This document shows, piece by piece, positions 10,857 to 35,582 of a stretch of 47,658 bases of DNA. Made by a program: the position numbers and the translations under genes. Source of the DNA: an uncultured delta proteobacterium (GTDB taxonomy: Bacteria; Desulfobacterota; Binatia; Bin18); NCBI GenBank assembly GCA_963733195.1, contig CAVTCR010000023.1:1-47658 (forward strand), in the 5' to 3' direction. Every line of letters starts with the position of its first letter. Position 1 is the first letter of the stretch. The notes beneath the pieces are model-generated. The model made no database searches, had not been told where the DNA came from, and saw only the letters and a program-made list of their open reading frames with translations.

Positions 10857-10958
10857 TCGCTCGCCATGAACAAACGAAACCGACTGTCAGCCTCCGTCTT
10901 TCCCATGAGGTCACCCTGTCCTGTTTCATACTTTGGCCGTCAGCTCAGGTGTGTACCG

Positions 10959-16187: not shown

Positions 16188-16369
16188 CCCGAGATATTTG
16201 TTTTGCCGTCGATATGGACGGTCATGATATAAAACTCCTTCTGCGTCGGTGAGGCCGCGCGTTGCTGTTGAGGAGCAGCCTGAGTGGGGGTGTCGTACTC
16301 TGTTGCTGCGGCAAGCTGCCCCCAGCCTGTCACGAGTAACCCTGCAAGAAGCATATGCACGTGTCTCAT
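16188..16369 (-). pseudogene. Secreted protein, 3' part cut off at the IS1 boundary
   Basis: Strong RBS (GAGGAGG), signal-peptide-like MRHVHMLLAGLLVTGWGQLAAA, then ...KEFYIMTVHIDGKTNISG. The frame enters the IS TIR and stops at 16166. Confidence 0.65.
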
Positions 16370-16450
16370 TGACCTTCCTCCTCGGTTGAATTGCCGTGCG
16401 CTTCGCACTGTCATCTGACATAACTACTCCCGTGCAAAAAAATTCCATCT

Positions 16451-16987: not shown

Positions 16988-18364
16988 ATGATGGTGCCTG
17001 TGCGCAAAGCTTCACCAATGCTCAGCTTCTGGCTGGCGTTGACGTTCTTTGCCGTTCTCCAGTGGATCGCGCATACACAGAACAGCATTCCCCGCATAGA
17101 CCTCATCAGCGACCTCGCGGGATTCGTGGCGCTAGCCTTCAGTGGCCTCCTGCTCAGCCGTCAGATCAATGCACATCGCCAAACGGAGCAAGAACTACGT
17201 CATGTCCACGAGGCATTGGACCAACGCGTGCAGGAACGCACGGTCGCGTTGACAGAGGCTAATACAGAATTACGTACACACATTGTTGAACGAGAGCGCG
17301 CGGAAGCGCAGCTTCGTAGTCTGATCAATGCGACTCAAGATGCCGTGATCACGATCGATCGCGAAGGACGCATCCTCTTGTTCAATCCTGCTGCCGAGCG
17401 CATCTTTGGCTACACGCGCGTAGACGTGCAGGGACAGCTTGTGCAGACCCTGATGCCCGAGCCCTACGCGAGCGAACACAATGGCTACATTGCCCGCTAC
17501 GAGCAGAGCGGCGAAGCGCGTGCGATTGGCCGGATCCGTACCGTTGCTGCACGGCGCAAGAATGGCGAGGTCTTTCCGATTGAACTGTCGGTCGCTGAGA
17601 TTACCACTCCCGATGAGACTACCTATGGTGCCTTTATCCGCGACATTTCGGACACGGTACACCTACAAGAACAACTGGTGGAGCGGGAGCGCCTAGCGGC
17701 GATTGGCACCACGGCGGCTACCTTTGCACACGAGGTCGGCAATCCACTCAATAGCATGCTCATGACGGGGCAACTCTTGGAGCGCTATCTCGTCAAGAAT
17801 CACGATCAGATTGATCAGAAGGCAGGTGAGACGCTACAAAACCTCATGAGCGAGATTAAGCGGCTCTCAGCCCTTCTCAGCGAGTTCCGCTCGCTCGCAC
17901 GCCGCCAGAAACTCGATCTGCGTCCAGTCTCACTGTCCACAGTCATCGCCGATGTATTGGCAGTGGAAACTCCGTCATACCAAGATAGCGGTGTACGTGT
18001 AGAACAGGATGTCCCTATCGATCTGCCCGTGGTTGTCGTCGATGCAGAGAAAGTACGGCAAGCGGTGCTCAACCTGTGTAAGAACGCGGTAGAAGCGATG
18101 CCACAGGGCGGAACACTGCGGGTGAGTGCGAACCACCAAGAAGGGACTATTCGTGTAGCAATCAGCGACACCGGGGCCGGTATTCCACCAGGTGTAAACA
18201 TTTTTGAGCCGTTTATCACGACAAAATCTCAAGGTACCGGGCTGGGGTTAACTATTGTTCGCCAGATTGTTGCGGCTCATCATGGCACGCTGACCTATCA
18301 AAGTACGCCGGGGCAAGGGACGACGTTCACCCTGGAGTTACCGGTCACACCGCCACCAGGATAA
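16988..18364 (+). CDS. Membrane-anchored FixL-like heme-PAS sensor histidine kinase
   Basis: Two TM helices and a coiled coil precede a PAS domain, FNPAAERIFGY...LMPEPYASEHNGYIARY...IGRIRTVAARRKNGEVFPIELS, which keeps the FixL-type proximal His and distal Arg. H-box FAHEVGNPL; N/G boxes NAVEAM, DTGAGI and GTGLGL. RBS GGAGG precedes ATG 16988. Confidence 0.9.
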   Translation: MMVPVRKASPMLSFWLALTFFAVLQWIAHTQNSIPRIDLISDLAGFVALAFSGLLLSRQINAHRQTEQELRHVHEALDQRVQERTVALTEANTELRTHIVERERAEAQLRSLINATQDAVITIDREGRILLFNPAAERIFGYTRVDVQGQLVQTLMPEPYASEHNGYIARYEQSGEARAIGRIRTVAARRKNGEVFPIELSVAEITTPDETTYGAFIRDISDTVHLQEQLVERERLAAIGTTAATFAHEVGNPLNSMLMTGQLLERYLVKNHDQIDQKAGETLQNLMSEIKRLSALLSEFRSLARRQKLDLRPVSLSTVIADVLAVETPSYQDSGVRVEQDVPIDLPVVVVDAEKVRQAVLNLCKNAVEAMPQGGTLRVSANHQEGTIRVAISDTGAGIPPGVNIFEPFITTKSQGTGLGLTIVRQIVAAHHGTLTYQSTPGQGTTFTLELPVTPPPG

Positions 18365-18368
18365 GATA

Positions 18369-18396
18369 GTAGGGACACGGCACGCCGTACCCCTAC
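18369..18396. repeat. GTAG-type REP palindrome
   Basis: GTAGGGACACGGC-AC-GCCGTACCCCTAC lies just after the kinase stop codon. A related copy is at 21331. Confidence 0.7.
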
Positions 18397-18457
18397 CAGC
18401 CCAAAGGGAACAACAGAGCAAAAAACCCACCACAAGAGTAGCAAACCGCTTCCAGTT

Positions 18458-18503
18458 TTCTTATTGTTGCAAAAGCGTGCGCCAATTTTCTCAAAAATGA
18501 GAA
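18458..18503. promoter_or_regulatory. Tandem candidate enhancer (bEBP) sites, pair 1
   Basis: TTCTTA-ttgt-TGCAAA (18458) and TTCTCA-aaaa-TGAGAA (18488), 30 bp apart. Confidence 0.75.
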
Positions 18504-18544
18504 CCACCTACCGCATTTTCCGACTGCTGACGAGGTGTATGTCG

Positions 18545-18560
18545 TGGCACTCCCTGTGCT
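18545..18560 (+). promoter_or_regulatory. sigma54 -24/-12 promoter (CBS gene plus response regulator)
   Basis: TGGCACTCCCTGTGCT, GG-N10-GC spacing. Confidence 0.8.
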
Positions 18561-18590
18561 ATTGAGAAGATCACAGCACAGGAGGTTTCT

Positions 18591-19178
18591 ATGCTTGTTC
18601 GTCAACGTATGACGCCCAATCCGGTCATTATCGGTCCACAAGCCATGCTCGCCATTGCCCAGGAGTATATGAGGGTTGGTCACTTTCGCCGGCTCCCCGT
18701 GGTGCAGGAGGGAGCCCTGATTGGGATCCTAACCGACCGTGACGTGCGTCGTCACGCCGGTTCAGAAGAGCGCACTAAAGTACAGGCAGCCATGACGGAA
18801 ACCCCGCTGACTGTTCCGCCAGACATGGAGGTTGAGGAAGCGACCAAGCTGATGTTGCGCGATCAGATCAGCGGACTTCCGGTGGTCGAGAATGGCAAAC
18901 TGGTGGGTATCATCACCGCCAGCGACATCCTCAACGCGTTTTTGGAGATGACTGGGGCCTCAACGCCTAATAGCGTGCGTATCAACTTGCTTCCCAAGGA
19001 CGGTGGCAGCCTCGCCGCCGCCGCCAAACTCATTGAGGAGAGTGGAGGTGAAATCCTAGGCGTCGGCACCCACCGTGAGCCCTCACGGAATCAGCGCGGC
19101 TTCTATCTCCGCATCTGTGGACTGGATGCTGCCACGGCCTCTACCGCCTTGCGCAAGAGTGGCTATACTGTCCTCTAG
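18591..19178 (+). CDS. CBS-pair plus ACT-like domain protein (AcuB-like)
   Basis: CBS motifs RRLPVV...GILTDRDV and SGLPVV...GIITASDI, with an ACT-like C-terminus. RBS AGGAGG. Confidence 0.88.
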   Translation: MLVRQRMTPNPVIIGPQAMLAIAQEYMRVGHFRRLPVVQEGALIGILTDRDVRRHAGSEERTKVQAAMTETPLTVPPDMEVEEATKLMLRDQISGLPVVENGKLVGIITASDILNAFLEMTGASTPNSVRINLLPKDGGSLAAAAKLIEESGGEILGVGTHREPSRNQRGFYLRICGLDAATASTALRKSGYTVL

Positions 19179-19204
19179 ATTTTGGGAGGTAGAGGACCTC
19201 GGGC

Positions 19205-20560
19205 ATGGCACTACGCGGCACGATTCTGGTGGCAGAGGATGAAGGACTGGCACGGCACAGTTTGACGGAGATCTTGCAAGAGGAAGGCTATCTGGTCTAT
19301 GAGGCTGCGGACGGGAACTCGGCACTAAAAATCCTCGACGAGGTCGACATCGATCTTGTGCTCTCAGACGTCAAGATGCCGGGCGCCGACGGCATCGCTA
19401 TCCTCAAGCAGGCACGCGAAACGCACCCCCAGACCCTGGTCATGCTGATGACCGCCTACGCGTCGGTCGACACCGTGGTAGAAGCCCTGCGTCTCGGCGC
19501 GCAGGACTATCTGCTCAAGCCGCTGTTGCTCGACGATGTGCTCAATAAAGTCCGTCGCCTACTGGAACACAAACAACAAGCCTGGGAAGTCCAGCTCCTG
19601 CGACGGGAGGTTACCCGCCATTTTGATTTCGACAGTCTCGTGGGGCGCAGTCCGGCAATGAAAGAACTCTTCGAACTCATCAAGAAAGTCGCTCCGACTA
19701 ATGCCACGGTTCTTATTACGGGAGAGAGTGGCGTCGGCAAAGAGGTTGTCGCCCGTCTCGTGCATTCTCTAAGCATGCAAAAAGAGCACGTCTTTCTGCC
19801 CATCAACACCAGTGCCATTCCGGAAACGTTGTTGGAAAGCCAACTGTTTGGGTATGTCAAAGGCGCGTTTACCGGGGCGGTCGGGAATCAAGAGGGCCTC
19901 TTTCAGCGGGCGCGTGGGGGCACGATCTTCCTGGATGAAATGGGCGAGATGCCGCTGACGCTCCAACCCAAGCTGTTACGCGCCATCGAAGCCAAGGAAG
20001 TGATGCCTGTCGGCGCGACCACTCCCGTCAAGACGGATATCCGATTGCTAGTGGCGACCAATCGCGACCTGGCCAAAGAGGTCGAAGCGGGTCGCTTTCG
20101 CGAGGATCTGTATTATCGACTGAATGTTATCGAACTCCACATCCCGCCCTTGCGTGAACGCCGGGACGATGTTCCCTTGTTGGTCGAGTACCTCGTTCGG
20201 CGGCACAATCACGATTTGAAGAAATCCTACAAAGGCGTGGACAATGCGACCATGAAGCTCCTGATGGCGATGCCGTGGAAAGGGAACGTACGTGAACTCG
20301 ATAACGTGCTCGAACGGGCCATGATCCTGGGCAACGGAGAATGGATTACCCCCGCTGACCTGCCGCGTAGTATCGAACCTGACAAAGTGATGCTTGCGTT
20401 TTTCAGTGACAACCTCAGGGAAGCAGTTCAGGCCTATGAGAAAAGCCACATCGAACATGTGTTGAAGAAGATGGCGGGTGATAAGAAGGGAACCGCCGAC
20501 GCGTTGGGCATGAGCCTCTCTTCGCTGTACCGTAAACTTGAGGACCTCGATATCGGCTGA
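19205..20560 (+). CDS. NtrC-family sigma54-dependent response regulator (REC-AAA+-HTH)
   Basis: Receiver (AEDE, SDVKMPG, LLKP), Walker A GESGVGKE, GAFTGA, FLDEMG, FREDLYYRL and a Fis-type HTH. Confidence 0.96.
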   Translation: MALRGTILVAEDEGLARHSLTEILQEEGYLVYEAADGNSALKILDEVDIDLVLSDVKMPGADGIAILKQARETHPQTLVMLMTAYASVDTVVEALRLGAQDYLLKPLLLDDVLNKVRRLLEHKQQAWEVQLLRREVTRHFDFDSLVGRSPAMKELFELIKKVAPTNATVLITGESGVGKEVVARLVHSLSMQKEHVFLPINTSAIPETLLESQLFGYVKGAFTGAVGNQEGLFQRARGGTIFLDEMGEMPLTLQPKLLRAIEAKEVMPVGATTPVKTDIRLLVATNRDLAKEVEAGRFREDLYYRLNVIELHIPPLRERRDDVPLLVEYLVRRHNHDLKKSYKGVDNATMKLLMAMPWKGNVRELDNVLERAMILGNGEWITPADLPRSIEPDKVMLAFFSDNLREAVQAYEKSHIEHVLKKMAGDKKGTADALGMSLSSLYRKLEDLDIG

Positions 20561-20579
20561 GAATGAACAAGACAAGGCG

Positions 20580-20626
20580 TTGCCAATCTTGCGAAACCTG
20601 CAGCGATTCTTTCGCGATTTAGCGAA
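20580..20626. promoter_or_regulatory. Tandem candidate enhancer sites, pair 2
   Basis: TTGCCA-atct-TGCGAA (20580) and TTCGCG-attt-AGCGAA (20611), 31 bp apart. Confidence 0.7.
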
Positions 20627-20665
20627 ATGATTTCCCATGGCACCCGAATTCCTCTGTTTTGTCAG

Positions 20666-20681
20666 TGGCATGCGATGTGCG
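20666..20681 (+). promoter_or_regulatory. sigma54 -24/-12 promoter
   Basis: TGGCATGCGATGTGCG, GG-N10-GC. Confidence 0.75.
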
Positions 20682-20705
20682 AATCCTTCGCAAGGAGGCT
20701 TGCGT

Positions 20706-20783
20706 ATGCCCCAATCAACTATTCGCGCTTGGATGACCAGCGCCCCTAACTTCATCATGCTTATGACGACACACATCACATGA
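20706..20783 (+). pseudogene. 25-codon mini-ORF, probable 5' relic of a CBS-domain gene
   Basis: AAGGAGG RBS, then MPQSTIRAWMTSAPNFIMLMTTHIT*. The start resembles the (V/I)RxxMTxxP opening of CBS proteins. Confidence 0.45.
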
Positions 20784-20802
20784 AATCTGGAGGCCTGTCC
20801 CC

Positions 20803-21321
20803 ATGGCAGAGACACGATCACCCTCAGTCCCGAATTCCCTGTGGAAAAACATTCTGGTACCGACGGACTTCTCTCCCCCTGCGGACGCCGCATTGGCGTA
20901 CGCACTCACACTTGCGCAGGCCAGTGGCGCGACACTGCATGTCTGCCACGTGGTGCCAGTTCCGCATGTGCTTGACGCACTTTATGAGCGCGGCCTCCAG
21001 CCCCCAGAGAGTGTGAAACGGATCTGGCAGAATGCACGCCGCCACATTAAGGCAATCACATGCGCAATCCCCGACGGAGAGGACGTCGCATTGCGTATTC
21101 ATTTTAGTGAGGGAGACGCCGTAGCGGGCGTGCTCGAATGGGCAGCCAAACTGAAGCCCGACCTCATTGTGATGGGCACGCATGGTCGCAAAGGTACCAA
21201 GCGGTTCTTTATGGGTAGCGTTGCCGAAGCGGTGGTGCGCCGTTCGCCCTGTCCGGTACTGACCTTGCGCGGTGAAACCACAGAAACTCGGGAAGAAACT
21301 GGGAAGAAGCGTTCGGCGTAG
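20803..21321 (+). CDS. Universal stress protein (single USP domain)
   Basis: NILVPTDFS and DLIVMGTHGRKG...MGSVAEAVVRRSPCPVL. Confidence 0.95.
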   Translation: MAETRSPSVPNSLWKNILVPTDFSPPADAALAYALTLAQASGATLHVCHVVPVPHVLDALYERGLQPPESVKRIWQNARRHIKAITCAIPDGEDVALRIHFSEGDAVAGVLEWAAKLKPDLIVMGTHGRKGTKRFFMGSVAEAVVRRSPCPVLTLRGETTETREETGKKRSA

Positions 21322-21330
21322 TAGATGATC

Positions 21331-21357
21331 GGAGGGGCACGGCGTGCCGTGTCCTCC
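21331..21357. repeat. REP-like palindrome, inverted relative of 18369
   Basis: GGAGGGGCACGGC-GT-GCCGTGTCCTCC just after the USP stop codon. Confidence 0.65.
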
Positions 21358-21440
21358 AACTGCCCATCACCTCGCGACAAATACTTTAAGACACACTATT
21401 TCTAGCTTTCATCTCTCTCTGCTTCGCGTCCTTATCTGAA

Positions 21441-21486
21441 TTCGCAATTCTGCGGCAATTCTCGTACCGGTTCTCACAAATAGGAA
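21441..21486. promoter_or_regulatory. Tandem candidate enhancer sites, pair 3
   Basis: TTCGCA-attc-TGCGGC (21441) and TTCTCA-caaa-TAGGAA (21471), 30 bp apart. Confidence 0.7.
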
Positions 21487-21526
21487 AGCTCACATCATAA
21501 AACCACGGAGATTGCGCTCTTGTGGC

Positions 21527-21542
21527 TGGTACGAGAGTTGCT
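21527..21542 (+). promoter_or_regulatory. sigma54 -24/-12 promoter
   Basis: TGGTACGAGAGTTGCT, GG-N10-GC. Confidence 0.8.
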
Positions 21543-21579
21543 CCTTTCATACGGCGACATCTCCACTTCCTCGCATACG

Positions 21580-21767
21580 GAAAGCAGCCGTTGATTGCCG
21601 AGTGGCGAAGTCGCTCGTTCCTCGGTCGTCGTGTCACAATACACGAGGGTAATATCCGCCTTGAGGGAATTGCCTTGAACCTGGATGCTGAGGGATGTCT
21701 GATTGTGACCTTAGATGATGGGTCAACCGTTCACGTTCGTGAAGGAGAGGTCTTTCCTCTTCATTAG
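21580..21767 (+). pseudogene. C-terminal (SH3-like) fragment of a biotin-protein ligase (BirA); start approximate
   Basis: LIAEWRSRSFLGRRVTI...EGIALNLDAEGCLIV.LDDG......EGEV matches the BPL_C pattern. There is no catalytic domain and no RBS-supported start. Confidence 0.7.
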
Positions 21768-21812
21768 AGGAGAGGGAATCGCATTTTCGTGAGGTGTTGG
21801 AGCAAGCCGCAC

Positions 21813-21828
21813 GGGAACGAAACTTGCT
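21813..21828 (+). promoter_or_regulatory. Possible weaker sigma54 promoter for the ferritin-like gene
   Basis: GGGAACGAAACTTGCT has GG-N10-GC spacing but a non-consensus -24 box. It ends 30 bp before the ATG. Confidence 0.45.
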
Positions 21829-21858
21829 CTGATTCAAGAACAGAGAGGAGATGAGCGT

Positions 21859-22386
21859 ATGTTCATGACGGAAGTCCTCAAACGTTGCAGTATGCTGGAG
21901 CAACGCTGCGCGGATATCTATAGCCAGTTTGCGGGCAGTGTGAACGATGACAAAGAGGTGGAGAGTTTTTTTCTTGGCCTGGCGGAAGAGGAAAAGCACC
22001 ACGCCAAGATTCTGGCGGCAGAAAAGGCGGCGTTAGATGTCGATTCCGATACCGGCTACTTTATGCCGGAGTTTTCCGCCAAACTGACCGAGATGGATAC
22101 CCTACTCAAGAAGGTGGAAGAGAAGGCACGCTCCGGCGTGACCAAAGAGGAAGCGTTTGCGTTCGCACTTGAACTCGAACAATCAGAGCTAAATACGATT
22201 TATCGTGATTTGGTCTTGATGGGACGCGCCGCAGTAAAATTGATGGCGCGGCATGTCGATGAATCCCTTTCCTTGCCCAAACATCAAGAAGGCTTGGTCG
22301 AAGGGATGCGGCGCTTTATTCCGCACAGCCCGACCCGTCAGCAGGCTGAGCTCTGGGCGGGGCAGTATCATATGGGACCTCGATGA
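21859..22386 (+). CDS. Ferritin-like / rubrerythrin-type di-iron four-helix protein
   Basis: LEQRCADIY, LAEEEKHH (ExxH) and ALELEQSELN. RBS GAGGAG. Confidence 0.8.
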   Translation: MFMTEVLKRCSMLEQRCADIYSQFAGSVNDDKEVESFFLGLAEEEKHHAKILAAEKAALDVDSDTGYFMPEFSAKLTEMDTLLKKVEEKARSGVTKEEAFAFALELEQSELNTIYRDLVLMGRAAVKLMARHVDESLSLPKHQEGLVEGMRRFIPHSPTRQQAELWAGQYHMGPR

Positions 22387-22727
22387 GACGATAAGGGAAC
22401 AAGAGAAAACTCCCTCTCAGTGCATCGTGATAAGAGCGGCGGACACGCGTTGACTGACAGGAAGGGGTGCATGAGATCGTGTCACTTGCTGAGCCAGTAC
22501 TCGACCGGCTGTGAAAGAAACACCTCCACGGCAATGCGCGCCCTCGACTTCCTCCGACAAGAGAGCGGTTTGCGTACCCGTTCTTGCTGACTCTTGGGCG
22601 TCAGGACGGCTACGGCGACAGGGTGAAGTCGAAGCGTGAACGGCGGTCGGCAGAGAATGATTGAGGCGAGATAGTCCATTACAATAGAAGCCCGATCTAT
22701 CCTAAGTGAAGCCTTATGATTCACTCG

Positions 22728-23168
22728 TTACGAAAATATTTCTTTGAAAGAGCCGGCTTTCAGAAGATCACGGAAACAGCGCAGGCAGTCGCTTTCAGTG
22801 ACGAGACCAACCAGACAGCCGTCTTTATCGATTACTGGCAGGCAGCCAAACTTCTCGCTCAGCATCTTGTCCACGGCTTCGACCACCCCAGCTTCCATGT
22901 CGATAGTCGTAACCCCCACGGTCATCACGTCACTTACGTTGATTTTGCCTAACCATTCGTGCGCCTTCGCCTTGGAGAAGCCAAGCACGGACGAAATTGC
23001 CGCTTTGTATAGATCACGCTGCGTGACGAGACCGACTACGCGTCTGTGACTGTCCACCACCGGGAGATGACGAATGCGACCCATGCTCATAATGTCATCG
23101 GCTACCCCGAGGCTGTCCGTGGCGTGAAGAGTGACAACACTGTTTCGCATGACATCTTTGATTTTCAT
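22728..23168 (-). CDS. CBS-pair domain protein
   Basis: MKIKDVM...IRHLPVVD...GLVTQRDL...GCLPVID...GLVTESD. RBS AGGAGG before ATG 23168. Confidence 0.92.
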   Translation of the reverse strand: MKIKDVMRNSVVTLHATDSLGVADDIMSMGRIRHLPVVDSHRRVVGLVTQRDLYKAAISSVLGFSKAKAHEWLGKINVSDVMTVGVTTIDMEAGVVEAVDKMLSEKFGCLPVIDKDGCLVGLVTESDCLRCFRDLLKAGSFKEIFS

Positions 23169-23203
23169 GTATGACCTCCTACTCTCCATGCCTCCAGAAC
23201 TAG

Positions 23204-23219
23204 AGCAAGAATTCTGCCG
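23204..23219 (-). promoter_or_regulatory. sigma54 -24/-12 promoter (CBS gene)
   Basis: Minus strand CGGCAGAATTCTTGCT, GG-N10-GC. Confidence 0.7.
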
Positions 23220-23257
23220 AAGATAACAGTGACTGACTTCGCAGAAACGAGCTTCTC

Positions 23258-23304
23258 TTCTCATCCATGAGAGAGTGCGGGTGGTACTTTCGCAAGTTTA
23301 GGAA
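23258..23304. promoter_or_regulatory. Tandem candidate enhancer sites, pair 4, shared by divergent promoters
   Basis: TTCTCA-tcca-TGAGAG (23258) and TTCGCA-agtt-TAGGAA (23289), 31 bp apart. Confidence 0.75.
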
Positions 23305-23352
23305 AACCTCTCTACAAAGTGTTTTTTTCGTGAGTACCCTGCCGAACTGCTT

Positions 23353-23368
23353 CGGCACAGCGGTTGCT
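23353..23368 (+). promoter_or_regulatory. sigma54 -24/-12 promoter (P-type ATPase)
   Basis: CGGCACAGCGGTTGCT, GG-N10-GC. Confidence 0.78.
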
Positions 23369-23403
23369 CGGTCACCACGGCTCGCTTATACGAAAGGCAG
23401 AAC

Positions 23404-26124
23404 ATGGCTACAGCTTGGCACACGGTATCCCCGCAGGTACTCACGCAAGAACTCCAAGCGAATGCCCACGAAGGACTGTCGAGTGTTGAGGTACAGCATC
23501 GCCTCGGCCAACACGGTCCGAACACGCTCCCTGAGCCGATCCCACCCTCACCCCTGGTGCTGTTCCTCAACCAGTTTACTAGCGTAATCGTGTGGGTATT
23601 GTTTGGGGCTGCGCTTCTTTCTGCTCTGCTACGCGAATGGATCGACGCCATTGCCATTGTCGCTATTATTCTCCTCAATGCGGTTTTGGGATTCGTTCAG
23701 GAATATCGTGCTGAACGGTCCCTCGCCGCTCTCAAGAAGCTGTCTGTTACCACCGCACGGGTGTTCAGAGATGGAGTACTCGTCACCATCCCTACGCGCG
23801 ATATCGTTCCCGGAGATCTTGTCCTGGTGGAAGCTGGAGACCAGGTTCCCGCTGATGCACGGTTGCTGTATGCGACCGGCCTCCGTGCCCAGGAAGCCGC
23901 ACTAACCGGCGAATCGACGCCCATCGATAAAACTGCTGAAACCTTGGTCGACGACACACTTGTCATTGCCGATCAGCGCAACATGGTGTTCTTCGGTACC
24001 GAAATCACTGCTGGTAAAGGGCGGGCACTGGTCGTTGCGACTGGCCTCCAAACTGAGTTAGGTCGCATTGCTACGCTCATACAAGCCACCAGCACCGAAC
24101 CGACCCCCCTCCAACGTCGTCTCGATCAGCTTGGCCACATGTTGCTGTATCTGTCGCTCGCGATCGTGGCGGTGGTCTTTGTTCTTGGATTGCTGCGTGG
24201 TGAGCCACCCGTCGCGATGCTTTTGACCGCAGTCAGCCTCGCCGTCGCCGCTATCCCGGAGGGGTTGCCTGCAATCGTAACCATCACCCTCGCGATCGGA
24301 GTGACACGGATGGTCACACGCAATGCGCTGGTTCGTCGACTACCTGCCGTAGAAACCTTGGGTTCTACTACCGTTATCTGTACCGACAAGACTGGGACGC
24401 TCACAAAGAATGAGATGACCGTGACCAGACTCTACGTCGACCGTCTCCTGTTTGCCGTCACCGGCGAGGGATACGAACCCACCGGCGAGATTCAAGAAAT
24501 CGAAACCACGGATGAACGAGGGTACCTCCGACACAGTCGGATCGATGTCCCGCTTGGCATGCGACAATTGCTCACAGCTGCCGTGCTATGCAATGGTGCG
24601 ACACTGCGAGAAGAACAGGGGAACTGGCGCATCATAGGTGACCCTACCGAAGGGGCACTCTTAGTGGCTGCAGCAAAAGCGCGAGTGTGGAAACAACCAC
24701 TGGAAGATGCCAGCGAGTTTATTGACGAGGTGCCATTCGACCCGGAACGAAAGATGATGACAGTTGTCCGTAAGACAGCGACACACACTATTGCGTATGC
24801 CAAGGGAGCACCCGATCTCCTCCTCAACAAATGTACACAATATACGACCATTACCGGAGCGACCGAGCCGCTGACTGAGGCGGGTCGACAACGTATTCTC
24901 ACTAATAATGATCTATTCGCGCACGAAGCGTTACGAGTATTAGCATTTGCACAGCGATCCCTTACCTCCCTCCCCTCTCCAATGCAGGCAGAGACCCTAG
25001 AGCATGACTTCGTTTTTCTCGGGCTTGCCGCCATGAAAGATCCCCTGCGGCCAGAGGCGAAAACTGCAGTTGCCGCGTGCCGGACAGCAGGCATTCATAC
25101 GGTGATGATTACCGGGGATCACAAAGACACTGGCGCTGCAATTGCTCGCGAACTTGGGATTCTTAACCATACAGCCCGTGCCATTTCGGGAGCCGATCTC
25201 AACTTCATGACCGATCAGCAACTTGCCGAACAAGTGCCACACACGACCGTCTATGCCCGCGTCTCGGCAGAACACAAGTTACGCGTGGTGCGTGCGTGGA
25301 AAGCGCGCGGTGCGGTGGTCGCTATGACGGGGGACGGCGTGAACGACGCCCCGGCACTCAAAGAGGCGGACATCGGGATCGCGATGGGACTGACTGGCAC
25401 GGATGTCACGAAAGAAGCGGCGGATCTGGTTGTCACCGACGACAACTTCGCCTCTATCGCCGCCGCGGTCGAGGAAGGACGTGGCATCTACGCGAACATT
25501 CGCAAAGCGGTTTACTACCTGTTGTCGTGCAACCTCAGTGAGATTCTTCTCATGTTATTTGCAACGATGTTCTTTTTGCCGCTTCCCCTTCTCCCCGTGC
25601 AGATCTTGTGGATCAATCTGGTTACGGATGGTCTCCCGGCACTCGCTTTAGCTGTCGACCCTAAGGACCCTGATCTCATGCAGCGACCACCGCGCTTGCC
25701 CACCGAGCCATTTCTGTCCTCGACTCGACTTCGGCTGATGTTCCTCCAGGGGCTGTTGATCGCGGCGATAACATTACTTACCTTTGCCTTCTATTTATCC
25801 TGGATGGGAACGAATCTCTCGCAGGCAAGGACGATTGCATTTACCGTCCTTGTGCTGGCGCAACTGACACACGCGTTTAATTGTCGTAGCGAGACCTATT
25901 CTATCTTTCAGCTAGGACTGAGCTCTAACACGGCATTGCTATGGGCTGTTGGATTGTCGGCATTGCTCCAGGTTGCGGTCGTGTTACTCCCTTGGATGCG
26001 TATAGGGTTCGGCACTACCCCATTGACTGCGAGGCAATGGCTTGTCGTTCTCGTCCTCAGCATACTACCGTTGTTTGGGACGGAGATTTGGAAGCTGTGG
26101 CGCCGCCATCAAGCTGATGGCTGA
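23404..26124 (+). CDS. P2A-type cation (Ca2+-like) transporting P-type ATPase, CtpF-like
   Basis: Motifs LTGES, AIPEGL, DKTGTLT, KGAP, MITGD, TGDGVNDAPAL and QILWINLVTDGLPA. Confidence 0.96.
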   Translation: MATAWHTVSPQVLTQELQANAHEGLSSVEVQHRLGQHGPNTLPEPIPPSPLVLFLNQFTSVIVWVLFGAALLSALLREWIDAIAIVAIILLNAVLGFVQEYRAERSLAALKKLSVTTARVFRDGVLVTIPTRDIVPGDLVLVEAGDQVPADARLLYATGLRAQEAALTGESTPIDKTAETLVDDTLVIADQRNMVFFGTEITAGKGRALVVATGLQTELGRIATLIQATSTEPTPLQRRLDQLGHMLLYLSLAIVAVVFVLGLLRGEPPVAMLLTAVSLAVAAIPEGLPAIVTITLAIGVTRMVTRNALVRRLPAVETLGSTTVICTDKTGTLTKNEMTVTRLYVDRLLFAVTGEGYEPTGEIQEIETTDERGYLRHSRIDVPLGMRQLLTAAVLCNGATLREEQGNWRIIGDPTEGALLVAAAKARVWKQPLEDASEFIDEVPFDPERKMMTVVRKTATHTIAYAKGAPDLLLNKCTQYTTITGATEPLTEAGRQRILTNNDLFAHEALRVLAFAQRSLTSLPSPMQAETLEHDFVFLGLAAMKDPLRPEAKTAVAACRTAGIHTVMITGDHKDTGAAIARELGILNHTARAISGADLNFMTDQQLAEQVPHTTVYARVSAEHKLRVVRAWKARGAVVAMTGDGVNDAPALKEADIGIAMGLTGTDVTKEAADLVVTDDNFASIAAAVEEGRGIYANIRKAVYYLLSCNLSEILLMLFATMFFLPLPLLPVQILWINLVTDGLPALALAVDPKDPDLMQRPPRLPTEPFLSSTRLRLMFLQGLLIAAITLLTFAFYLSWMGTNLSQARTIAFTVLVLAQLTHAFNCRSETYSIFQLGLSSNTALLWAVGLSALLQVAVVLLPWMRIGFGTTPLTARQWLVVLVLSILPLFGTEIWKLWRRHQADG

Positions 26125-26133
26125 ACGCTTATC

Positions 26134-26592
26134 TTACTTTTTCTCCTGCTTTGGTAGTCGGGCAACGAGGACAGGACAGGAGGCGTGACGCACGACGCGT
26201 TCAGCGACACTGCCAAGCACTACATGGGACAACCCCGTCCGACCGTGTGACCCCATGATAATGAGATCAGCGTGCTCGCGTTCCGCCATGTGACAAATCT
26301 CCCACATCGCTTCACCGACGCTCACACGTGTTTCAACGGGGACAGCACTCGTTCCCTTCTTCGCCGCGAATTCAGCCATACGTTTTTCTGCGTCGGCAAT
26401 CATTTCACCCTCCATGCGTGCGAGATCTGGATAATACACACTCTCCGGAAAGGCGAGGTGCGACATGGTCGGACTCGCATGAAAGAGGATTACTTTGGCC
26501 TTGCAAACTGCGGCTAATCCCAGCGCCCATTTGTACGCGTATTCGGCATAGTCCGAAAAATCGGTTGGTACGAGAATCGTCTTAATGTCCAT
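26134..26592 (-). CDS. Universal stress protein
   Basis: TILVPTDFS and DLIIMGSHGRTG...LGSVAERVVRHASCPVL. Confidence 0.95.
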   Translation of the reverse strand: MDIKTILVPTDFSDYAEYAYKWALGLAAVCKAKVILFHASPTMSHLAFPESVYYPDLARMEGEMIADAEKRMAEFAAKKGTSAVPVETRVSVGEAMWEICHMAEREHADLIIMGSHGRTGLSHVVLGSVAERVVRHASCPVLVARLPKQEKK

Positions 26593-26621
26593 GAGATATC
26601 CTCCTACTCAATACTACCCAT

Positions 26622-26637
26622 AGCAAAACCGACGCCA
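26622..26637 (-). promoter_or_regulatory. sigma54 -24/-12 promoter (USP, minus strand)
   Basis: Minus strand TGGCGTCGGTTTTGCT, GG-N10-GC. Confidence 0.78.
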
Positions 26638-26665
26638 GTATAGCAGGTAGGTTTTCGCCTGATTT

Positions 26666-26711
26666 TTTCTATTTTTGAGAACTCTTATGGGGCGTTTCGC
26701 AGAAATGCGAA
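26666..26711. promoter_or_regulatory. Tandem candidate enhancer sites, pair 5, shared by divergent promoters
   Basis: TTTCTA-tttt-TGAGAA (26666) and the perfect palindrome TTCGCA-gaaa-TGCGAA (26696), 30 bp apart. Confidence 0.78.
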
Positions 26712-26740
26712 AGCGGCACGCACCCGTGCGCTACAGCTCT

Positions 26741-26756
26741 AGGCGCACTTCTTGCT
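26741..26756 (+). promoter_or_regulatory. sigma54 -24/-12 promoter (tandem USP, probably also the FNT channel)
   Basis: AGGCGCACTTCTTGCT, GG-N10-GC. Confidence 0.72.
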
Positions 26757-26798
26757 CACTCGATGTCTGTATCCCACACGTCTTCAGCAGGAGTCTCT

Positions 26799-27777
26799 AT
26801 GCCGCAGGTGAGAAACATTCTGGTTCCTATCGACACCCACGAGAACGCTGGGTTGGTCGTCCAGTGGGCAACGCTCTTTGCTCACGCGACCCACAGTCGT
26901 CTCACCCTTCTCCATGTGAATGAATCGCTGGAGCTCATGAAAGCCCGCCCGGGTCTCCGGGGTGGCGGATTTCCGAGTCTCGATATGACGCTGGACAAGT
27001 GGAGGCAGCATTATCAACAGGACACACAAGCGACGCTGGGTACGCTGGCGCAACAACATTGTCATGGGCTGTCAGTTTCCCCCTGATCCTGGAAGGACGA
27101 GCCTATGCGACGATCCTCGGTGCGATCGAGACCACACGGAGTGATCTCGTCAATCATGGGCACGCATGGAAGACCGTGGTATCAACGCGCGTTTCTCGGT
27201 AGTACCGCCGAGGCGGTGTTACGTGCGAGTGACAGTCCCAATGCTGATCATCCACAACAGGAGCTGCTCGCTTCCGCCCCCACGGATGCGGCGCATGCTG
27301 CTGTCGACCGACTTTAGTCCTGCCAGTGTGGGTGGAGAAGAATGGGTGCAGTATCTCACCCAACATGGAGTGCGGGAGGTCGTCCTGGTGCATGCCATCG
27401 AGAATCCGTTACTCGATATCTACTCTCCTGATACAGCGGATCTCAATCTCAAGCACGTGAGTGAAGAGTCACGACAGCATCCACCACGCTCGGCGCAACC
27501 GTACTGGGAGAACGCGATGCAGGTTGCGAAGGCCAAACTGAGCCAGGTACGGCAACAATTGTTGGCACCCCCTTCTCCTGTGCTCCAAGCAGAAATTGTG
27601 GTTGCTGAAGGAGCACCGGCAACGGCCATCCTCACAGCGGCGGAGCAACATCAGGTAGACTGCATCGTCATGGCAACCCACGGTCGCAGCGGGGTCCGCC
27701 GCTTCGTTTTGGGCAGTGTCACTGAGAAGGTGGTTCGCAGTTCCTCGCGGCCGGTGCTGGCTGTGCCCAGCCGGTAG
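26799..27777 (+). CDS. Tandem-domain universal stress protein (frameshifts near 27080, 27150 and 27240)
   Basis: Three overlapping ORFs give NILVPID, then IMGTHGRPWYQRAFLGSTAEAVLR, then MLLSTDFS...VMATHGRSGVRRFVLGSVTEKVVR. Confidence 0.88.
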
Positions 27778-27845
27778 GTCAAAACAATTGCGTGTGCACG
27801 AAACGAAACCGCGAGGTTCTGACATCTGCAACTACAGGAAGTATC

Positions 27846-28763
27846 ATGAATGAAACTTTAAATTTCGACGCCCTCCTGCCCGCGGAGATCGCCAAGAAAG
27901 CTGAAGACGTCGGTGCGCGCAAATGTCACTTGCCATTCTGGTCACTGCTGACGCTGGCGGTGCTGGCGGGAGCCTTCATTGCCCTGGGCGCCGTGTTCTC
28001 CACCACCGTGAGTGCCGGCACTGCCGGGGCTTTGCCCTTTGGGGTCGTTCGCTTACTCGCGGGGTTGGTATTCTGCCTCGGCCTTATTTTGGTGATCGTT
28101 GGTGGGGCCGAACTCTTTACCGGGAATACCCTGATCAGTATGGCCTGGGCAAGTGGCGTGATCTCGACGCCGCAGCTGCTGCGCAACTGGCTCATCGTCT
28201 ATCTTGGGAATCTGCTCGGAGCGGTAGCGACTGCAGCATTGGTGTATCTTTCTCAACAGTACACATTCGGCAACGGAGCGGTGGGAGTCACTGCGTTGGA
28301 GATTGCACGGTCCAAGACTAGTTTGGGCTTCGTGCAAGCGGTGATGCTCGGCATTCTCTGCAATGGGTTGGTGTGTCTCGCGGTATGGCTCTGCCTGGGG
28401 GCGCGGAGTATGACAGACAAGATTCTCGCAATTCTCTTCCCTATTAGTGCTTTTGTCGCGGCAGGGTTTGAGCACAGTGTGGCCAATATGTACTACATTC
28501 CCGTTGGCATGTTGATCAAAACCGACACGACTTTTCTTACTGCGATTGGCAAGAGCGTCAGTAATTATCCGAGCCTGACGTGGGCAAATTTTCTGTTCGT
28601 GAATTTAGTGCCGGTGACAATCGGCAATATCATAGGCGGTGTGATGCTCGTGGGGTTCACGTACTGGTTTGTCTATTTGCGGCCGGAAGTCCGAACGACT
28701 TCTAGTCTTCAGACGATAAGGCACGAGGATGATCCGCCGAGAGCGTTGCTAAAGACAGATTGA
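27846..28763 (+). CDS. focA: Formate/nitrite transporter (FNT) family channel, FocA-like
   Basis: LAGAFIALG, GAELFTGN, GILCNGLVCLAVW, GFEHSVANMY and VTIGNIIGG. Confidence 0.92.
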   Translation: MNETLNFDALLPAEIAKKAEDVGARKCHLPFWSLLTLAVLAGAFIALGAVFSTTVSAGTAGALPFGVVRLLAGLVFCLGLILVIVGGAELFTGNTLISMAWASGVISTPQLLRNWLIVYLGNLLGAVATAALVYLSQQYTFGNGAVGVTALEIARSKTSLGFVQAVMLGILCNGLVCLAVWLCLGARSMTDKILAILFPISAFVAAGFEHSVANMYYIPVGMLIKTDTTFLTAIGKSVSNYPSLTWANFLFVNLVPVTIGNIIGGVMLVGFTYWFVYLRPEVRTTSSLQTIRHEDDPPRALLKTD

Positions 28764-28916
28764 ACACCTTTAGCCGGGTCTGTGTTGGGGTGAGTAGAAT
28801 CACCAACCCTGTTGATCGCGGGCAGTAAAGATCACGAGCTCCCTGTGCTCAATCGACAGGTGTATCGGGCATTCCACACAGTCAAAACAGGGAGTGACTA
28901 CATCGGGAGCGCGACA

Positions 28917-29486
28917 ATGACGTCACAACAATTCCTCCAACGACTGCTCGACTTTGAACGTCGCGTTGGCACGTTGTATCAGAGTTTGGGAAACCGGCCT
29001 GCTTTCCATGGGGAACTGCGAGCTTTCTGGCATCGCATGGCCGAAGACGAGCGTCATCATGTATTCATTCTCCAGCGGAGTAAAATGATAATGGATCTGC
29101 AAGAATCCGTGCCTGTAGGTTCTGACGACGTCTTTCGCGCCATTGAGCAGCAGTTGACGACCGCCGAGGCAGCACTAGGACAGATAGACATCAGCGCGGA
29201 TGAGGCGTTGCGCCACGCACTGATCCTCGAAGGTTCAGAGTTGAATCGTCTTGACGGCGCGTGGTTTCACTGCTTTCCGCCGGCACTGCGAGCTCTCCTG
29301 ACGGCCCTCATGCCAGAGGATAACCTTCACCTCCGACGGTTGCTCGAAACCGTCCATGCCTTCAGCTCTAATAAAGAGCTACATGAACAGGCCACCACAC
29401 TCTGGGTGAAATATCAGCGTGCCAAGACCAACCCTATGTCAGTGGATGGGAAGACAGACTCGCAGCACAGCAAAACACAGTCTTGA
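28917..29486 (+). CDS. Second ferritin-like / rubrerythrin-type protein
   Basis: FERRVGTLY, MAEDERHH, ALILEGSELN and EDNLH; same motif order as 21859..22386. Confidence 0.75.
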   Translation: MTSQQFLQRLLDFERRVGTLYQSLGNRPAFHGELRAFWHRMAEDERHHVFILQRSKMIMDLQESVPVGSDDVFRAIEQQLTTAEAALGQIDISADEALRHALILEGSELNRLDGAWFHCFPPALRALLTALMPEDNLHLRRLLETVHAFSSNKELHEQATTLWVKYQRAKTNPMSVDGKTDSQHSKTQS

Positions 29487-29595
29487 AGCTCGTCCCTAGC
29501 TCTACTACGCCAGATTTTAGGTGGTGTGTTAGATCTGGATTTCAGGATACCTCCTCCTGTCCGAACCTGAAATGTACCGGTGACTCTCTACGCTG

Positions 29596-29611
29596 CGCAA
29601 AGGCAGTGCCA
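29596..29611 (-). promoter_or_regulatory. sigma54 -24/-12 promoter with no intact downstream gene
   Basis: Minus strand TGGCACTGCCTTTGCG, followed by RBS AGGAGGAGG (about 29550-29558) and CTG AAA instead of ATG. Confidence 0.7.
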
Positions 29612-29725
29612 GCCAAGATATATGCGTCTTCGGTCTTGGTTTTGCACACAAGGTCAGGATAAGTTGCGATTTCATTGAAATGGTGTCTATTGGTAGATCT
29701 CATTAGGAACGATGGAGAAGAGGTG

Positions 29726-29772
29726 TTCGCGTTCTTAAGAAAGCGACGACGAGAAATTCGCAATTGTAAGAA
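29726..29772. promoter_or_regulatory. Tandem candidate enhancer sites, pair 6
   Basis: TTCGCG-ttct-TAAGAA (29726) and TTCGCA-attg-TAAGAA (29757), 31 bp apart. Confidence 0.72.
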
Positions 29773-29816
29773 CTAGGCGACCGACCAACAAAGATTCGTG
29801 GAGAGGAAATACAACT

Positions 29817-31430
29817 ATGACAGCTTCTTCATCAGTCTCCCACAGCGCCGAGATGCCAACATTCACTGACCTTCTGGCTGCGCTCGCACATCCTGCATGT
29901 TATCCGCATCACCCAGCGAACGTTGAGGTCATGCAAACCCATATCTCTGCCGTCTTCTTGGCCGGTGACGAAGTCTATAAGCTCAAGAAGCCAGTGAGGT
30001 TTTCTTTTCTTGATTACTCTACACTGGAGTTGCGTCGTCATTACTGTGAGGAAGAAGTACGACTGAATCATCGGCTCGCACCAACTGTGTATCTCGGCGT
30101 CGTGCCCGTGCTAAGGACCAGCGATGGCTACCGTGTCCGTGAAGCCGTGAACATGCAGGATGCGACTGTGGTGGACTATCTCGTCCGCATGCGGCGTCTG
30201 CCGCCCGAACGGACGCTTGACGTACTGATTACCAATGGACAGGTTACGAAGTTCGGAATTCATGCGCTCGTGAAACGCTTGGTGCACTTTCACAATACTG
30301 CAGCAACCAGCGGTGCGGCAGAGTATGGTGCACCTGCAGTGGTGTGGCAGGCGTTAGCCGATAACTTCTCAGCGACGGCACCGTTTGTCGGCCAAACCAT
30401 CAGTGAACAACAATACCGTGTGATTCAGGAGTTCAGTCAGCAGTTCTTTGCCGAGCACCAGGAGTTACTCAAGGAGCGCGTTCTCCAGGATCGAGTGCGC
30501 GAAGGCCACGGCGACTTACGATGTGACCACGTCTACTTCCTCGATGAAGGCATCGCCATCATTGATTGTATCGAGTTTAGTCCACGCTTACGCACCTGTG
30601 ATGTCGCCTCAGAACTCGCGTTTCTGGCCATGGATTTGGAACTGCGTGGTGCAGTTACCTGGTCTGGTGAATTGGTCCGTGCCTACGCAACTCAGGCAGA
30701 GGATGAAGCGCTGTTTACCTTATTGCCGTTCTATCAGTGCTATCGGGCGTACGTACGTGGGAAAGTAGAGAGCCTCAAAAGTACGGAATCAGAGATCCCA
30801 GCAGAGGAACAGGAACGTGCACGGCAACAGGCTCGTCGCTTGTTTCGCTTGTCGTATCGCTATGCTCGGGGTGCACTGACTCCGGCGCTGATTGTAGTTT
30901 GTGGTCAGATTGGCACAGGCAAATCCACGGTAGCCCAATATCTGAGCGAGCAGACGGGTTTTGCTGTGCTGAACTCCGATGTGATCCGCAAGCGGCTCGC
31001 AGGCCTATTGCCAACTGCACGTGCAAGGGCGGACTTCTACCAACCGGAATTTACCCGTAAAACCTATGACGCGTTACATAACCAAGCTGAGGAGGAATTA
31101 CGCAGCGGACGTGGCGTTATCGTCGATGCGACTTACAAGCATCAAGACGATCGCAATGCCATTCTTGCATTAAGCAAACGGTGTCACGTTCCGGTGTTGT
31201 TTGTGGAGTGCCAAGCCAATGCGGCAACTGTCGAGAAGCGGTTACGCGAACGCGAACGCCGTGACGATACCGTCTCAGACGCAACATGGGCGCTTGCACA
31301 ACTGGAACGCGAGAGCTTCCCTCTCTTCAGTGATCTCCCGGAGCAATGCCATGTTGTCGTAGATACAGAGGGTGATATAGAAACAGCTCTCATGCGGGTT
31401 GAAGAGAGACTCGGCGTGAGAAAATCGTAA
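29817..31430 (+). CDS. Aminoglycoside-phosphotransferase-like / AAA_33 P-loop kinase fusion (Rv2004c-like)
   Basis: QTHISAVFL, YKLKKPV.F.FLDYST, EVRLNHRLAP, EGHGDL and IDCIEF, then Walker A GQIGTGKST, SDVIRK and VDAT. Confidence 0.9.
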   Translation: MTASSSVSHSAEMPTFTDLLAALAHPACYPHHPANVEVMQTHISAVFLAGDEVYKLKKPVRFSFLDYSTLELRRHYCEEEVRLNHRLAPTVYLGVVPVLRTSDGYRVREAVNMQDATVVDYLVRMRRLPPERTLDVLITNGQVTKFGIHALVKRLVHFHNTAATSGAAEYGAPAVVWQALADNFSATAPFVGQTISEQQYRVIQEFSQQFFAEHQELLKERVLQDRVREGHGDLRCDHVYFLDEGIAIIDCIEFSPRLRTCDVASELAFLAMDLELRGAVTWSGELVRAYATQAEDEALFTLLPFYQCYRAYVRGKVESLKSTESEIPAEEQERARQQARRLFRLSYRYARGALTPALIVVCGQIGTGKSTVAQYLSEQTGFAVLNSDVIRKRLAGLLPTARARADFYQPEFTRKTYDALHNQAEEELRSGRGVIVDATYKHQDDRNAILALSKRCHVPVLFVECQANAATVEKRLRERERRDDTVSDATWALAQLERESFPLFSDLPEQCHVVVDTEGDIETALMRVEERLGVRKS

Positions 31431-32915: not shown

Positions 32916-32928
32916 AATCACTCTGTAA

Positions 32929-34062: not shown

Positions 34063-34084
34063 TGCTAAGTCCCCTAAGTCACAC

Positions 34085-35522: not shown

Positions 35523-35582
35523 GATCCCTCCTTTTGCTTTCCCGTACCGGTTCTATCCCTTCAGTTTCGGTAGCTCAATCGA

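Follow-up and report, generated by a model that had tools for sequence, protein, structure and literature searches.

The 47,658-nucleotide stretch of DNA analyzed here (the window) is contig C23 of assembly G000 (6.95 Mb, 87 contigs, 93% complete), which derives from an uncultured soil bacterium placed in the Binatia. Binatia are widespread and uncultured. Positions 16988-31430 of the window hold an island of genes for a sensor kinase, a sigma-54 activator, and a set of stress-related proteins, and it seems reasonably probable that this island belongs to a low-oxygen regulon of Binatia that is governed by a two-component system and depends on sigma-54. The parts of this proposal differ in strength. 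The wiring, meaning the operators, the activator, and the sigma-54 promoters, is very likely to be as proposed. It is also quite likely that the kinase in the window is the cognate kinase of the activator, and the view that low O2 is the signal, with the polarity described below, is equally or slightly less likely. Taken as a whole, the sequence evidence points to a well-supported sigma-54 regulon with a probable heme gas sensor. All of the genes listed for this block in an initial annotation were confirmed with Pfam and NCBIfam models, with corrections given further below. Two genes (CBS2 and USP2) lie on the minus strand, and thus the block must consist of several transcription units. The genes are as follows, where USP denotes a universal stress protein:

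16988-18364, plus strand: sensor kinase, 458 amino acids, with two hydrophobic N-terminal segments, a FixL-type PAS domain, and an AtoS/ZraS-like HisKA-HATPase core (His248)
18591-19178, plus strand: CBS1, an AcuB-like protein with a CBS pair and an ACT domain
19205-20560, plus strand: sigma-54 activator with receiver (REC) residues Asp55 and Lys105, GAFTGA at 220, Walker A/B motifs, and a Fis-type helix-turn-helix (HTH) with SLSSLYRK
20803-21321, plus strand: USP1, with ATP-binding G-2X-G-9X-GS motif
21552-21767, plus strand: biotin-ligase remnant, C-terminal 70 amino acids (whole in relatives, 263 amino acids)
21859-22386, plus strand: FER1, a four-helix protein of ferritin-like type in which Glu14, Glu45, His48, Glu107, and Glu110 are invariant
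22728-23168, minus strand: CBS2, a stand-alone CBS pair
23404-26124, plus strand: P-type IIA (Ca2+-type) ATPase with TGES, PEGL, DKTGT, and GDGVND motifs
26134-26592, minus strand: USP2, ATP-binding motif kept
26799-27777, plus strand: USP3, a tandem USP whose frame is interrupted by single-base indels, probably through assembly error
27846-28763, plus strand: FNT channel that scores best with the FocA model (283.9 bits, cutoff 290.1)
28917-29486, plus strand: FER2, another ferritin-like protein, which shares 22% identity with FER1
29817-31430, plus strand: APH-like plus AAA_33 fusion

In the proposed scheme, the kinase would bind b-type heme in its FixL-type PAS domain and would be inhibited by bound O2. 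When O2 falls, the kinase would phosphorylate Asp55 of the adjoining activator. We infer this phosphotransfer, the identity of O2 as the ligand, and the low-oxygen induction of the regulon from sequence, and the behavior of FixL suggests that the deoxy kinase would be the active form. Comparative genomics strongly supports the view that the activator then binds tandem TTCBCA-N4-TGVGAA sites and opens sigma-54 promoters located whole helical turns away, including the promoter of its own CBS1-activator operon, which would create positive feedback. Judging from their families, the outputs would be adenylate sensors (USP and CBS proteins), transporters of ions and of formate or nitrite, and di-iron proteins, and together these might help an aerobe survive oxygen shortage. 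The two COX1 loci in G000 fit an aerobe, as do the aerobic pathways reported for Binatota.

The evidence for the wiring begins with a 16-bp palindrome, TTCBCA-N4-TGVGAA. The intergenic gaps of the island contain six tandem pairs of this site, spaced at 30-31 bp. Seven sigma-54 sites of the -24/-12 type are located 28-48 bp from five of the six pairs, two of which are flanked on both sides. The resulting seven predicted promoters precede CBS1-activator, USP1, ligase remnant-FER1, CBS2, the ATPase, USP2, and USP3-FNT, and RpoN is encoded in G000. These elements are located as follows:

18458-18503: operator pair 1, sites beginning at 18458 and 18488
18545-18559, plus strand: sigma-54 site, CBS1-activator operon (predicted autoregulation)
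20580-20626: operator pair 2
20666-20680, plus strand: sigma-54 site, USP1
21441-21486: operator pair 3
21527-21541, plus strand: sigma-54 site, biotin-ligase remnant and FER1
23205-23219, minus strand: sigma-54 site, CBS2
23258-23304: operator pair 4, common to two divergent promoters
23353-23367, plus strand: sigma-54 site, P-type ATPase
26623-26637, minus strand: sigma-54 site, USP2
26666-26711: operator pair 5, common to two divergent promoters
26741-26755, plus strand: sigma-54 site, USP3-FNT(-FER2)
29726-29772: operator pair 6

Because the first operator model was trained on island sites, it was tested outside the island. Across 612 kb of sequence from 39 related loci, the model detected 56 operator pairs, spread over 23 of these loci. 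Each of 20 shuffles gave 0-1 pairs, five alternative spacings gave 1-5, and control loci that carry unrelated activators (78 loci, 1.37 Mb) gave 7. A strict sigma-54 site is present within 90 bp of 49 of the 56 pairs (background 2.6%), and the distances between operators and promoters cluster near 28, 39, 51, and 62 bp, which correspond to whole helical turns. A second model was retrained on relatives alone, with the same genus omitted and with sites picked by the first model. This relatives-trained model places all six island pairs within the top 9 of 27 in the 6.95 Mb of G000, with scores of at least 24.5 compared to 22.2 for the best shuffle. Thus, the clustering of island genes under these operators exceeds chance. 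The remaining three top pairs show that the regulon reaches outside the island. One (C53:17753) lies beside a split P-type ATPase gene and efflux genes, another (C27:39176) is ahead of a FER2 paralog, and the third (C30:37577) is between divergent CBS and USP genes.

The protein that reads these sites is most plausibly the activator. It carries the REC Asp and Lys residues, GAFTGA, Walker A/B motifs, and an HTH, and it matches the Pfam families Sigma54_activat and HTH_8. In trees that omitted rows with stops or short matches, two of which used a chosen subset of outgroups, its clade comprises 38 rows (support 99) whose recognition helix reads S[L/R]SSLYRK or differs from it only slightly. The Arg form (SRSS) is present in nine paralogs. 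With the outer columns of the operator model neutralized, the 8 promoter-linked pairs at SRSS loci have G at 32 of 32 half-site edges, a switch that represents one evolutionary event rather than 32, whereas the 47 pairs at SLSS ortholog loci have T at 171 of 188. The match between Leu/Arg in the helix and T/G in the operator ties the site to this activator, as it would be difficult to account for such a joint change of helix and DNA if the helix did not read the site. Furthermore, the 10 kinases encoded at SRSS loci fall into a single group (support 93), which is what cognate pairing would predict. Operators, promoters, and cis-trans covariation therefore back the initial suggestion that an NtrC-type activator controls the island together with sigma-54.

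The SRSS kinase-activator paralogs occur at L128, L131, L133, and L138-L141 (genomes G024, G011, G010, G021, G004, and G017). This pair, whose operators have the form GTC...GAC, is found alongside the main system in several genomes. The kinases at SRSS loci have receiver domains, PAS/GAF domains, or no sensor domains, and glycogen and PFK genes are located nearby.

Turning to the sensor, the start of the kinase at 16988 is supported by a database protein that is 99% identical and also has 458 amino acids. The best solved relatives of its PAS domain are the heme domains of FixL (1d06, 100.3 bits, E = 6.5e-28), followed by DosP (55 bits) and then by LOV domains. Residues His164, Arg170, and Arg184 correspond to His200, Arg206, and Arg220 of BjFixL, and Ala179 replaces Ile215. 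Likewise, Ala179, Ile180, Leu200, and Val202 align with Ile209, Ile210, Leu230, and Val232 of S. meliloti FixL, which are reported to constitute the distal face of the pocket (PMC10765370). The same source describes His200 as the heme ligand, Arg220 as the residue that bonds O2, and Arg206 as necessary for kinase inhibition, and it reports that FixL is inhibited by O2 (PMC10765370). The heme His is retained by 118 of 120 homologs, and 112 of them retain the distal Arg. The sequence predicts that this domain binds b-type heme; PAS structures with heme b have been listed elsewhere (PMC8694187). It is the sole FixL-like PAS domain in G000, where the next-best PAS scores 56 bits.

The remainder of the kinase is not FixL-like. 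Its core scores 182 bits with AtoS, 169 with ZraS, and 102 with FixL, ZraS is its best structure match, and the whole protein reaches 220 bits with the FixL model, for which the cutoff is 850. By sequence comparison, the kinase is a chimera that carries a FixL-type PAS on an AtoS/ZraS-like core. Hence, the initial designation as a FixL-type heme kinase holds for the PAS pocket, with its His and Arg residues kept, but not for the core. The N terminus has hydrophobic segments in the window, and in orthologs it has PAS-PAS, GAF, or nothing, which indicates that the conserved unit is the heme-type PAS plus kinase. A fold model (predicted local distance difference test, 79) and Foldseek comparisons support the PAS-helix-kinase layout only.

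Distribution was assessed by searching 41 genomes, apparently of Binatia; homologs with a taxon name are mostly assigned to 'Candidatus Binatia' or 'Deltaproteobacteria'. The activator clade (at least 57% identity) is present in 28 of these genomes and the kinase in 19, and 18 of the 19 also carry the activator clade. The combined operator and promoter pattern was found in 23 of the 28 activator-bearing genomes and in 3 of the 13 that lack the activator, compared to 0-1 per genome for a reversed control. A strict tandem pattern, which recovered matches in 2 of 201 genomes of the phylum, finds only one of the six island pairs and is thus too strict to map the range of the system. The kinase-CBS-regulator core is conserved in part of the main clade, where 12 of 18 loci have CBS1 and 10 have the kinase. 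Of the remaining island genes, the APH/AAA_33 gene was found in 5 of the 39 related loci, plus a fragment, FNT in 2, and the type IIA ATPase in none. The outer families lack the PAS kinase.

Genes for HSP20, PFK, class II ribonucleotide reductase, and FtsH are also found nearby in relatives, as are a qNOR-type gene and genes of the heme-copper oxidase family. Several of these kinds of genes are reported to be induced by low oxygen in the lxa locus (PMC3721108). A 'cbb3 oxidase' label for genes at L126 and L136 was dropped because it was not confirmed on checking. Genes that recur behind operator-linked promoters include those for phosphoribosyl pyrophosphate synthetase and AMP/thymidine phosphorylase (L001, L114, and L270) and those for biotin ligase and acetyl-CoA hydrolase/transferase (L111, L117, and L120), and NAPRTase recurs near operator-linked genes in relatives. 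In G013 and G007, the heme-PAS kinase has as neighbors a protoglobin-STAS gene (L115:4184-5155) and a SpoIIE-type phosphatase gene (L112:1211-1858), which we presume to be stressosome-like.

Several observations weigh against the proposed regulon, in addition to the single origin of the SRSS switch noted above. Ten activator-bearing genomes lack the PAS kinase, five of the 28 lack a match to the strict operator and promoter pattern, and the P-type IIA ATPase was beside the activator in none of the 39 related loci. In the island itself, pair 6 has no -24/-12 site before the next start codon, that of the APH/AAA_33 gene. Operators are present in G022, in which the activator was not found. Similarly, neither the clade activator nor the kinase nor FER1 was found in G002 (100% complete by markers, 350 contigs), and yet this genome has seven strong operator pairs in three stretches (L270-L272); the assemblies of both genomes are fragmented. 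The G002 pairs precede USP, CBS, FER2, and MgtC-family genes. Finally, Ala occupies the Ile215 position in 116 of the 120 homologs, and a change at the equivalent position of SmFixL is reported to lower O2 affinity (PMC10765370), which means that the ligand preference of these proteins may differ from that of FixL.

This last point invites the best of the alternative explanations, in which the wiring is the same and the heme reports nitric oxide (NO), carbon monoxide (CO), or heme redox state to drive a response to nitrosative stress or respiratory inhibition. The family-wide replacement of Ile215 by Ala is compatible with this possibility, as are the replacement of the distal Arg by Leu in 7 of the 120 homologs, the qNOR-type gene downstream of an operator-linked promoter in L123, and the FNT channel within the island. 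However, the distal Arg that bonds O2 is kept in nearly all homologs, the FNT protein is nearer to FocA than to NirC (283.9 versus 97.4 bits), and qNOR appears in only 1 of 39 loci. We therefore regard NO, CO, or redox sensing as unlikely, albeit the least unlikely of the alternatives.

It is somewhat less plausible still that the activator runs the regulon with its main input coming from elsewhere, for example from FER1, the CBS-ACT protein, or another kinase. The kinase is non-adjacent in 8 of the 18 main-clade loci. FER1 orthologs occur in 15 of the 41 genomes, every one of which has the kinase or the activator, and two receiver-less members of the activator clade are encoded directly behind a ferritin-like gene (L144:2-1275 and L145:7257-8749). 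Of these, L145 retains at least three operators with sigma-54 sites, and its genome lacks the PAS kinase. A predicted complex of FER1 with the AAA+/HTH portion of the activator scored 0.02, which speaks neither for nor against this idea. G000 also has a FixJ-like gene (C62:225475), but this gene has its own kinase immediately upstream (C62:224786). Moreover, the receiver of the window activator is intact, the kinase and activator subclades mirror one another, and the kinase core resembles those that serve sigma-54 activators, as its AtoS and FixL scores indicate. These findings argue for the adjoining kinase as the input.

If that kinase is the input, its polarity could in principle be reversed, such that the regulon is on when O2 is present and serves re-oxygenation or oxidative stress. 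In three loci, each from a different outer family, the activator is followed directly by the gene for a protoglobin-HisKA-HATPase kinase (L132:9109-11746, L135:9001-11704, and L142:8322-11021). We count this second type of heme sensor beside sister activators in favor of a low-oxygen signal. Nevertheless, such kinases belong by domain layout to a class reported to be active when O2 is bound (PMC11841059, PMC8697598), and ferritin-like proteins can serve oxidative defense. Against reversal, O2 inhibits FixL in published work (PMC10765370), sets of USP, CBS, ATPase, and HSP20 genes are reported to be induced at low oxygen in lxa, DosR, and Nmp systems, and the inverter of the Nmp system is described as making its output on at low O2 (PMC11841059). 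Reversed polarity is accordingly quite improbable. Least probable is a chance collection of stress genes under no common control, for although gene order is variable in relatives, the ATPase and FNT genes are seldom neighbors, and an IS1-like element and gene fragments flank the island, the operator and promoter statistics and the conservation of the operators disfavor it.

A broader possibility, which we offer tentatively, is that Binatia have a class-wide oxygen program that acts through one activator family, with the sensors swapped and the DNA site kept. Its inputs would be a FixL-type heme-PAS on an NtrB-class kinase (window), a protoglobin kinase (L132, L135, and L142), a receiver-kinase relay (L128, L131, and L133), and a di-iron ferritin-like partner for receiver-less forms (L144 and L145). 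Under such a program, a single change from Leu to Arg in the recognition helix, matched by a change from T to G in the operator, would insulate a duplicate circuit in the same cell, a simple case of paralog insulation. The family may also be distantly related to NmpS-NmpR, with the grafted sensor having made an inverter unnecessary.

Some features of the island required correction or further comment. The two CBS proteins, the P-type IIA ATPase, and the FNT channel are present as annotated by Pfam and NCBIfam; by its domain class, the ATPase may be CtpF-like. All three USP genes are present, although the third is a tandem USP interrupted by single-base indels near 27083, 27151, and 27234. In a relative with 81% DNA likeness, USP3 occupies one 346-codon frame and is followed by the same FNT gene. 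Because both COX1 genes of G000 are also split, the USP3 indels are likely an assembly error. Split genes are common (window 1-12700 and 32900-36300; G000 C11:33238-34567 and C50:221166-222654) and include a polysaccharide chain-length gene, a racemase/dehydratase, an amidase, a Tex-like gene, and both COX1 genes, which suggests indel errors throughout the assembly. USP1 and USP2 retain the ATP-binding motif.

Both open reading frames for ferritin-like proteins are also present. A fold search with FER1 gave no match at E of 0.001 or below, the best being a ferritin-like di-iron protein (8.5e-3), and FER2 has no Pfam match of its own, such that its assignment depends on an ortholog, Atlas look-alikes, and Glu/His motifs in common. 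The AAA_33 fusion, possibly Rv2004c-like, is real, but its APH domain is weak (19.9 bits, cutoff 23.2) and surpasses the cutoff in one of four orthologs; no solved structural relative of the fusion was found. The CBS proteins had been likened to Rv2626c. However, neither is Rv2626c-like by best match: CBS1 scores 79 bits with AcuB-type structures compared to 34.7 for Rv2626c and aligns with AcuB-type CBS-ACT proteins along its length, and CBS2 has no Rv2626c match at 1e-6. AcuB is reported to sense energy charge and to act on a deacetylase (PMC13121692, PMC13039410), and an output of CBS1 that senses adenylates would be consistent with this.

The biotin-ligase C-terminal remnant at 21552-21767 was overlooked in the initial annotation. 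Relatives carry a whole biotin ligase gene and an acetyl-CoA hydrolase/transferase gene ahead of FER1, which points to a local deletion in the window. A single-chain carboxylase (biotin carboxylase, biotinyl domain, and carboxyltransferase) encoded at window positions 37815-41099 (minus strand) is a possible client of a regulated biotin ligase. Toward the downstream end of the island, a good minus-strand -24/-12 site (29597-29611) faces a strong ribosome-binding-like sequence without a gene. This geneless site and the promoterless operator ahead of the APH/AAA_33 gene (gap 29773-29816) may be deletion traces. An IS1-like element (15418-16414) borders the island, and a short open reading frame that abuts it (16166-16414, minus strand) resembles the start of a secreted protein. 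Rfam and tRNA scans of the window gave no matches, scans for sigma-70 promoters (7 versus 8.8) and terminators (20 versus 14.3) were at chance level, and GC content has no step at the island. One RNA run (X1, share 0.06) yielded short contigs that cover parts of the island, although such contigs carry no information on transcription or its level.

We found no description of this system in the literature on Binatia, in a search that covered subscription journals thinly and main texts rather than supplements. FixL, two-component systems, and universal stress proteins are unmentioned in a Binatia genome survey that was checked for them (PMC8262859). If the predictions hold, the system would be a master switch of Binatia, whose defined operator could be used to read out the regulon in Binatia genomes or soil metatranscriptomes.

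Comparison with known systems clarifies what is shared and what is distinct. Like FixL, the kinase by sequence retains the proximal His, Arg206, distal Arg, Ile216, Leu236, and Val238 positions, the order of PAS, helix, and kinase, and a probable membrane anchor. It differs in its AtoS/ZraS-like core and in its partner, which is a sigma-54 activator rather than FixJ, and the promoter anatomy here needs no FixK step. Pfam detects no LuxR-type regulator in the island, and no FixJ in G000 scores above the cutoff. As judged from its genes, the system is not FixLJ.

DosR is a NarL/LuxR-type regulator that operates with GAF-heme kinases. The island resembles the DosRST system in its USPs, CBS protein, cation ATPase, APH/AAA_33-type fusion, and autoregulation, and its relatives add HSP20 and PFK, but the sensor fold, regulator family, and sigma factor all differ. 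The initial view of a DosR-regulon-like island cannot be sustained, given a sigma-54 activator, a PAS domain with no GAF by Pfam, and a kit that is not specific to DosR. Indeed, the effector kit is reported to be common to lxa and DosR (PMC3721108; PMC10034137; PMC5483032), and hence 'DosR-like' describes outputs rather than membership. The related proposal that this kit has been rewired to a FixL-like kinase, an NtrC-type activator, and sigma-54 agrees with the operators, promoters, heme pocket, and hypoxia-type kit, with the restriction that the kinase is FixL-like in its PAS only. The lxa locus of Burkholderia cenocepacia is reported to share several USPs, a cation ATPase, HSP20, class II ribonucleotide reductase, a Zn protease, cytochrome c, and a palindromic motif over a low-oxygen cluster (PMC3721108). 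However, its motif is the Fnr/Anr-like TGA-N6-TCA (PMC3721108), whereas the window has sigma-54 promoters with tandem enhancers. In Vibrio cholerae, the PAS kinase FlrB, reported to bind heme, phosphorylates the sigma-54 activator FlrC, but there heme itself is described as the signal, the PAS is unconventional rather than a FixL-type gas pocket, and flagella are controlled (bioRxiv 10.1101/2023.06.29.547052). USP and CBS families have also been reported under predicted sigma-54 control in Planctomycetes (PMC12316311).

The closest known design is NmpRSTU of Myxococcus xanthus, in which a heme kinase is reported to feed an NtrC-like activator and sigma-54, a hypoxia-induced CBS gene is first in the operon of the activator, USP and P-type ATPase genes are targets, and two palindromic sites are separated by a 14-15 bp gap (PMC11841059; PMC6211767). 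The combination in the window had initially been thought undescribed, a claim that NmpRSTU contradicts (PMC11841059). Because the regulon works like NmpRSTU, with which the window has in common the circuit logic, a CBS-first operon, a USP target, and the 14-15 bp gap, its design is known, and the surprise it offers is limited by this publication for Myxococcus. Several components nevertheless differ. The window has a one-step FixL-type heme-PAS kinase, whereas NmpRSTU is reported to use the protoglobin NmpU, the inverter NmpS, and NmpT. No protoglobin (PF11563) match was found in G000 at its 93% completeness, and the island has no receiver-kinase hybrid. The window site is TTCBCA-N4-TGVGAA and the Nmp site GCGCA-N5-TGCGC; the recognition helix is SLSSLYRK in the window and SVRKIQYR in NmpR-like proteins, with activators that are 42-43% identical; and the ATPase is type IIA in the window and a cbb3-linked copper type in Nmp. 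The nmp-like loci were located by a protoglobin Pfam family search, since a full-length query of 26 Myxococcaceae genomes gave mainly generic kinases, and the NmpR-like rows were found by synteny in Myxococcaceae genomes other than the M. xanthus sequence itself. NmpR-like activators were not sister to the window clade in three free trees, but an approximately unbiased test did not reject a joint clade (p = 0.498), which weakens our early reading of the two as non-orthologs. NmpS-like kinases group as sisters of the window kinase by its core, although support is weak (84), and Nmp homologs are mapped in Fig. S2 of PMC6211767. The sensor, operator, and lineage differ from those of NmpRSTU and seem to be undescribed. 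After DosR, Fnr/FixK, and Nmp, the island would represent a fourth regulator design placed over a similar hypoxia kit, which bears on the roles of USPs, CBS proteins, and the APH/AAA_33 fusion.

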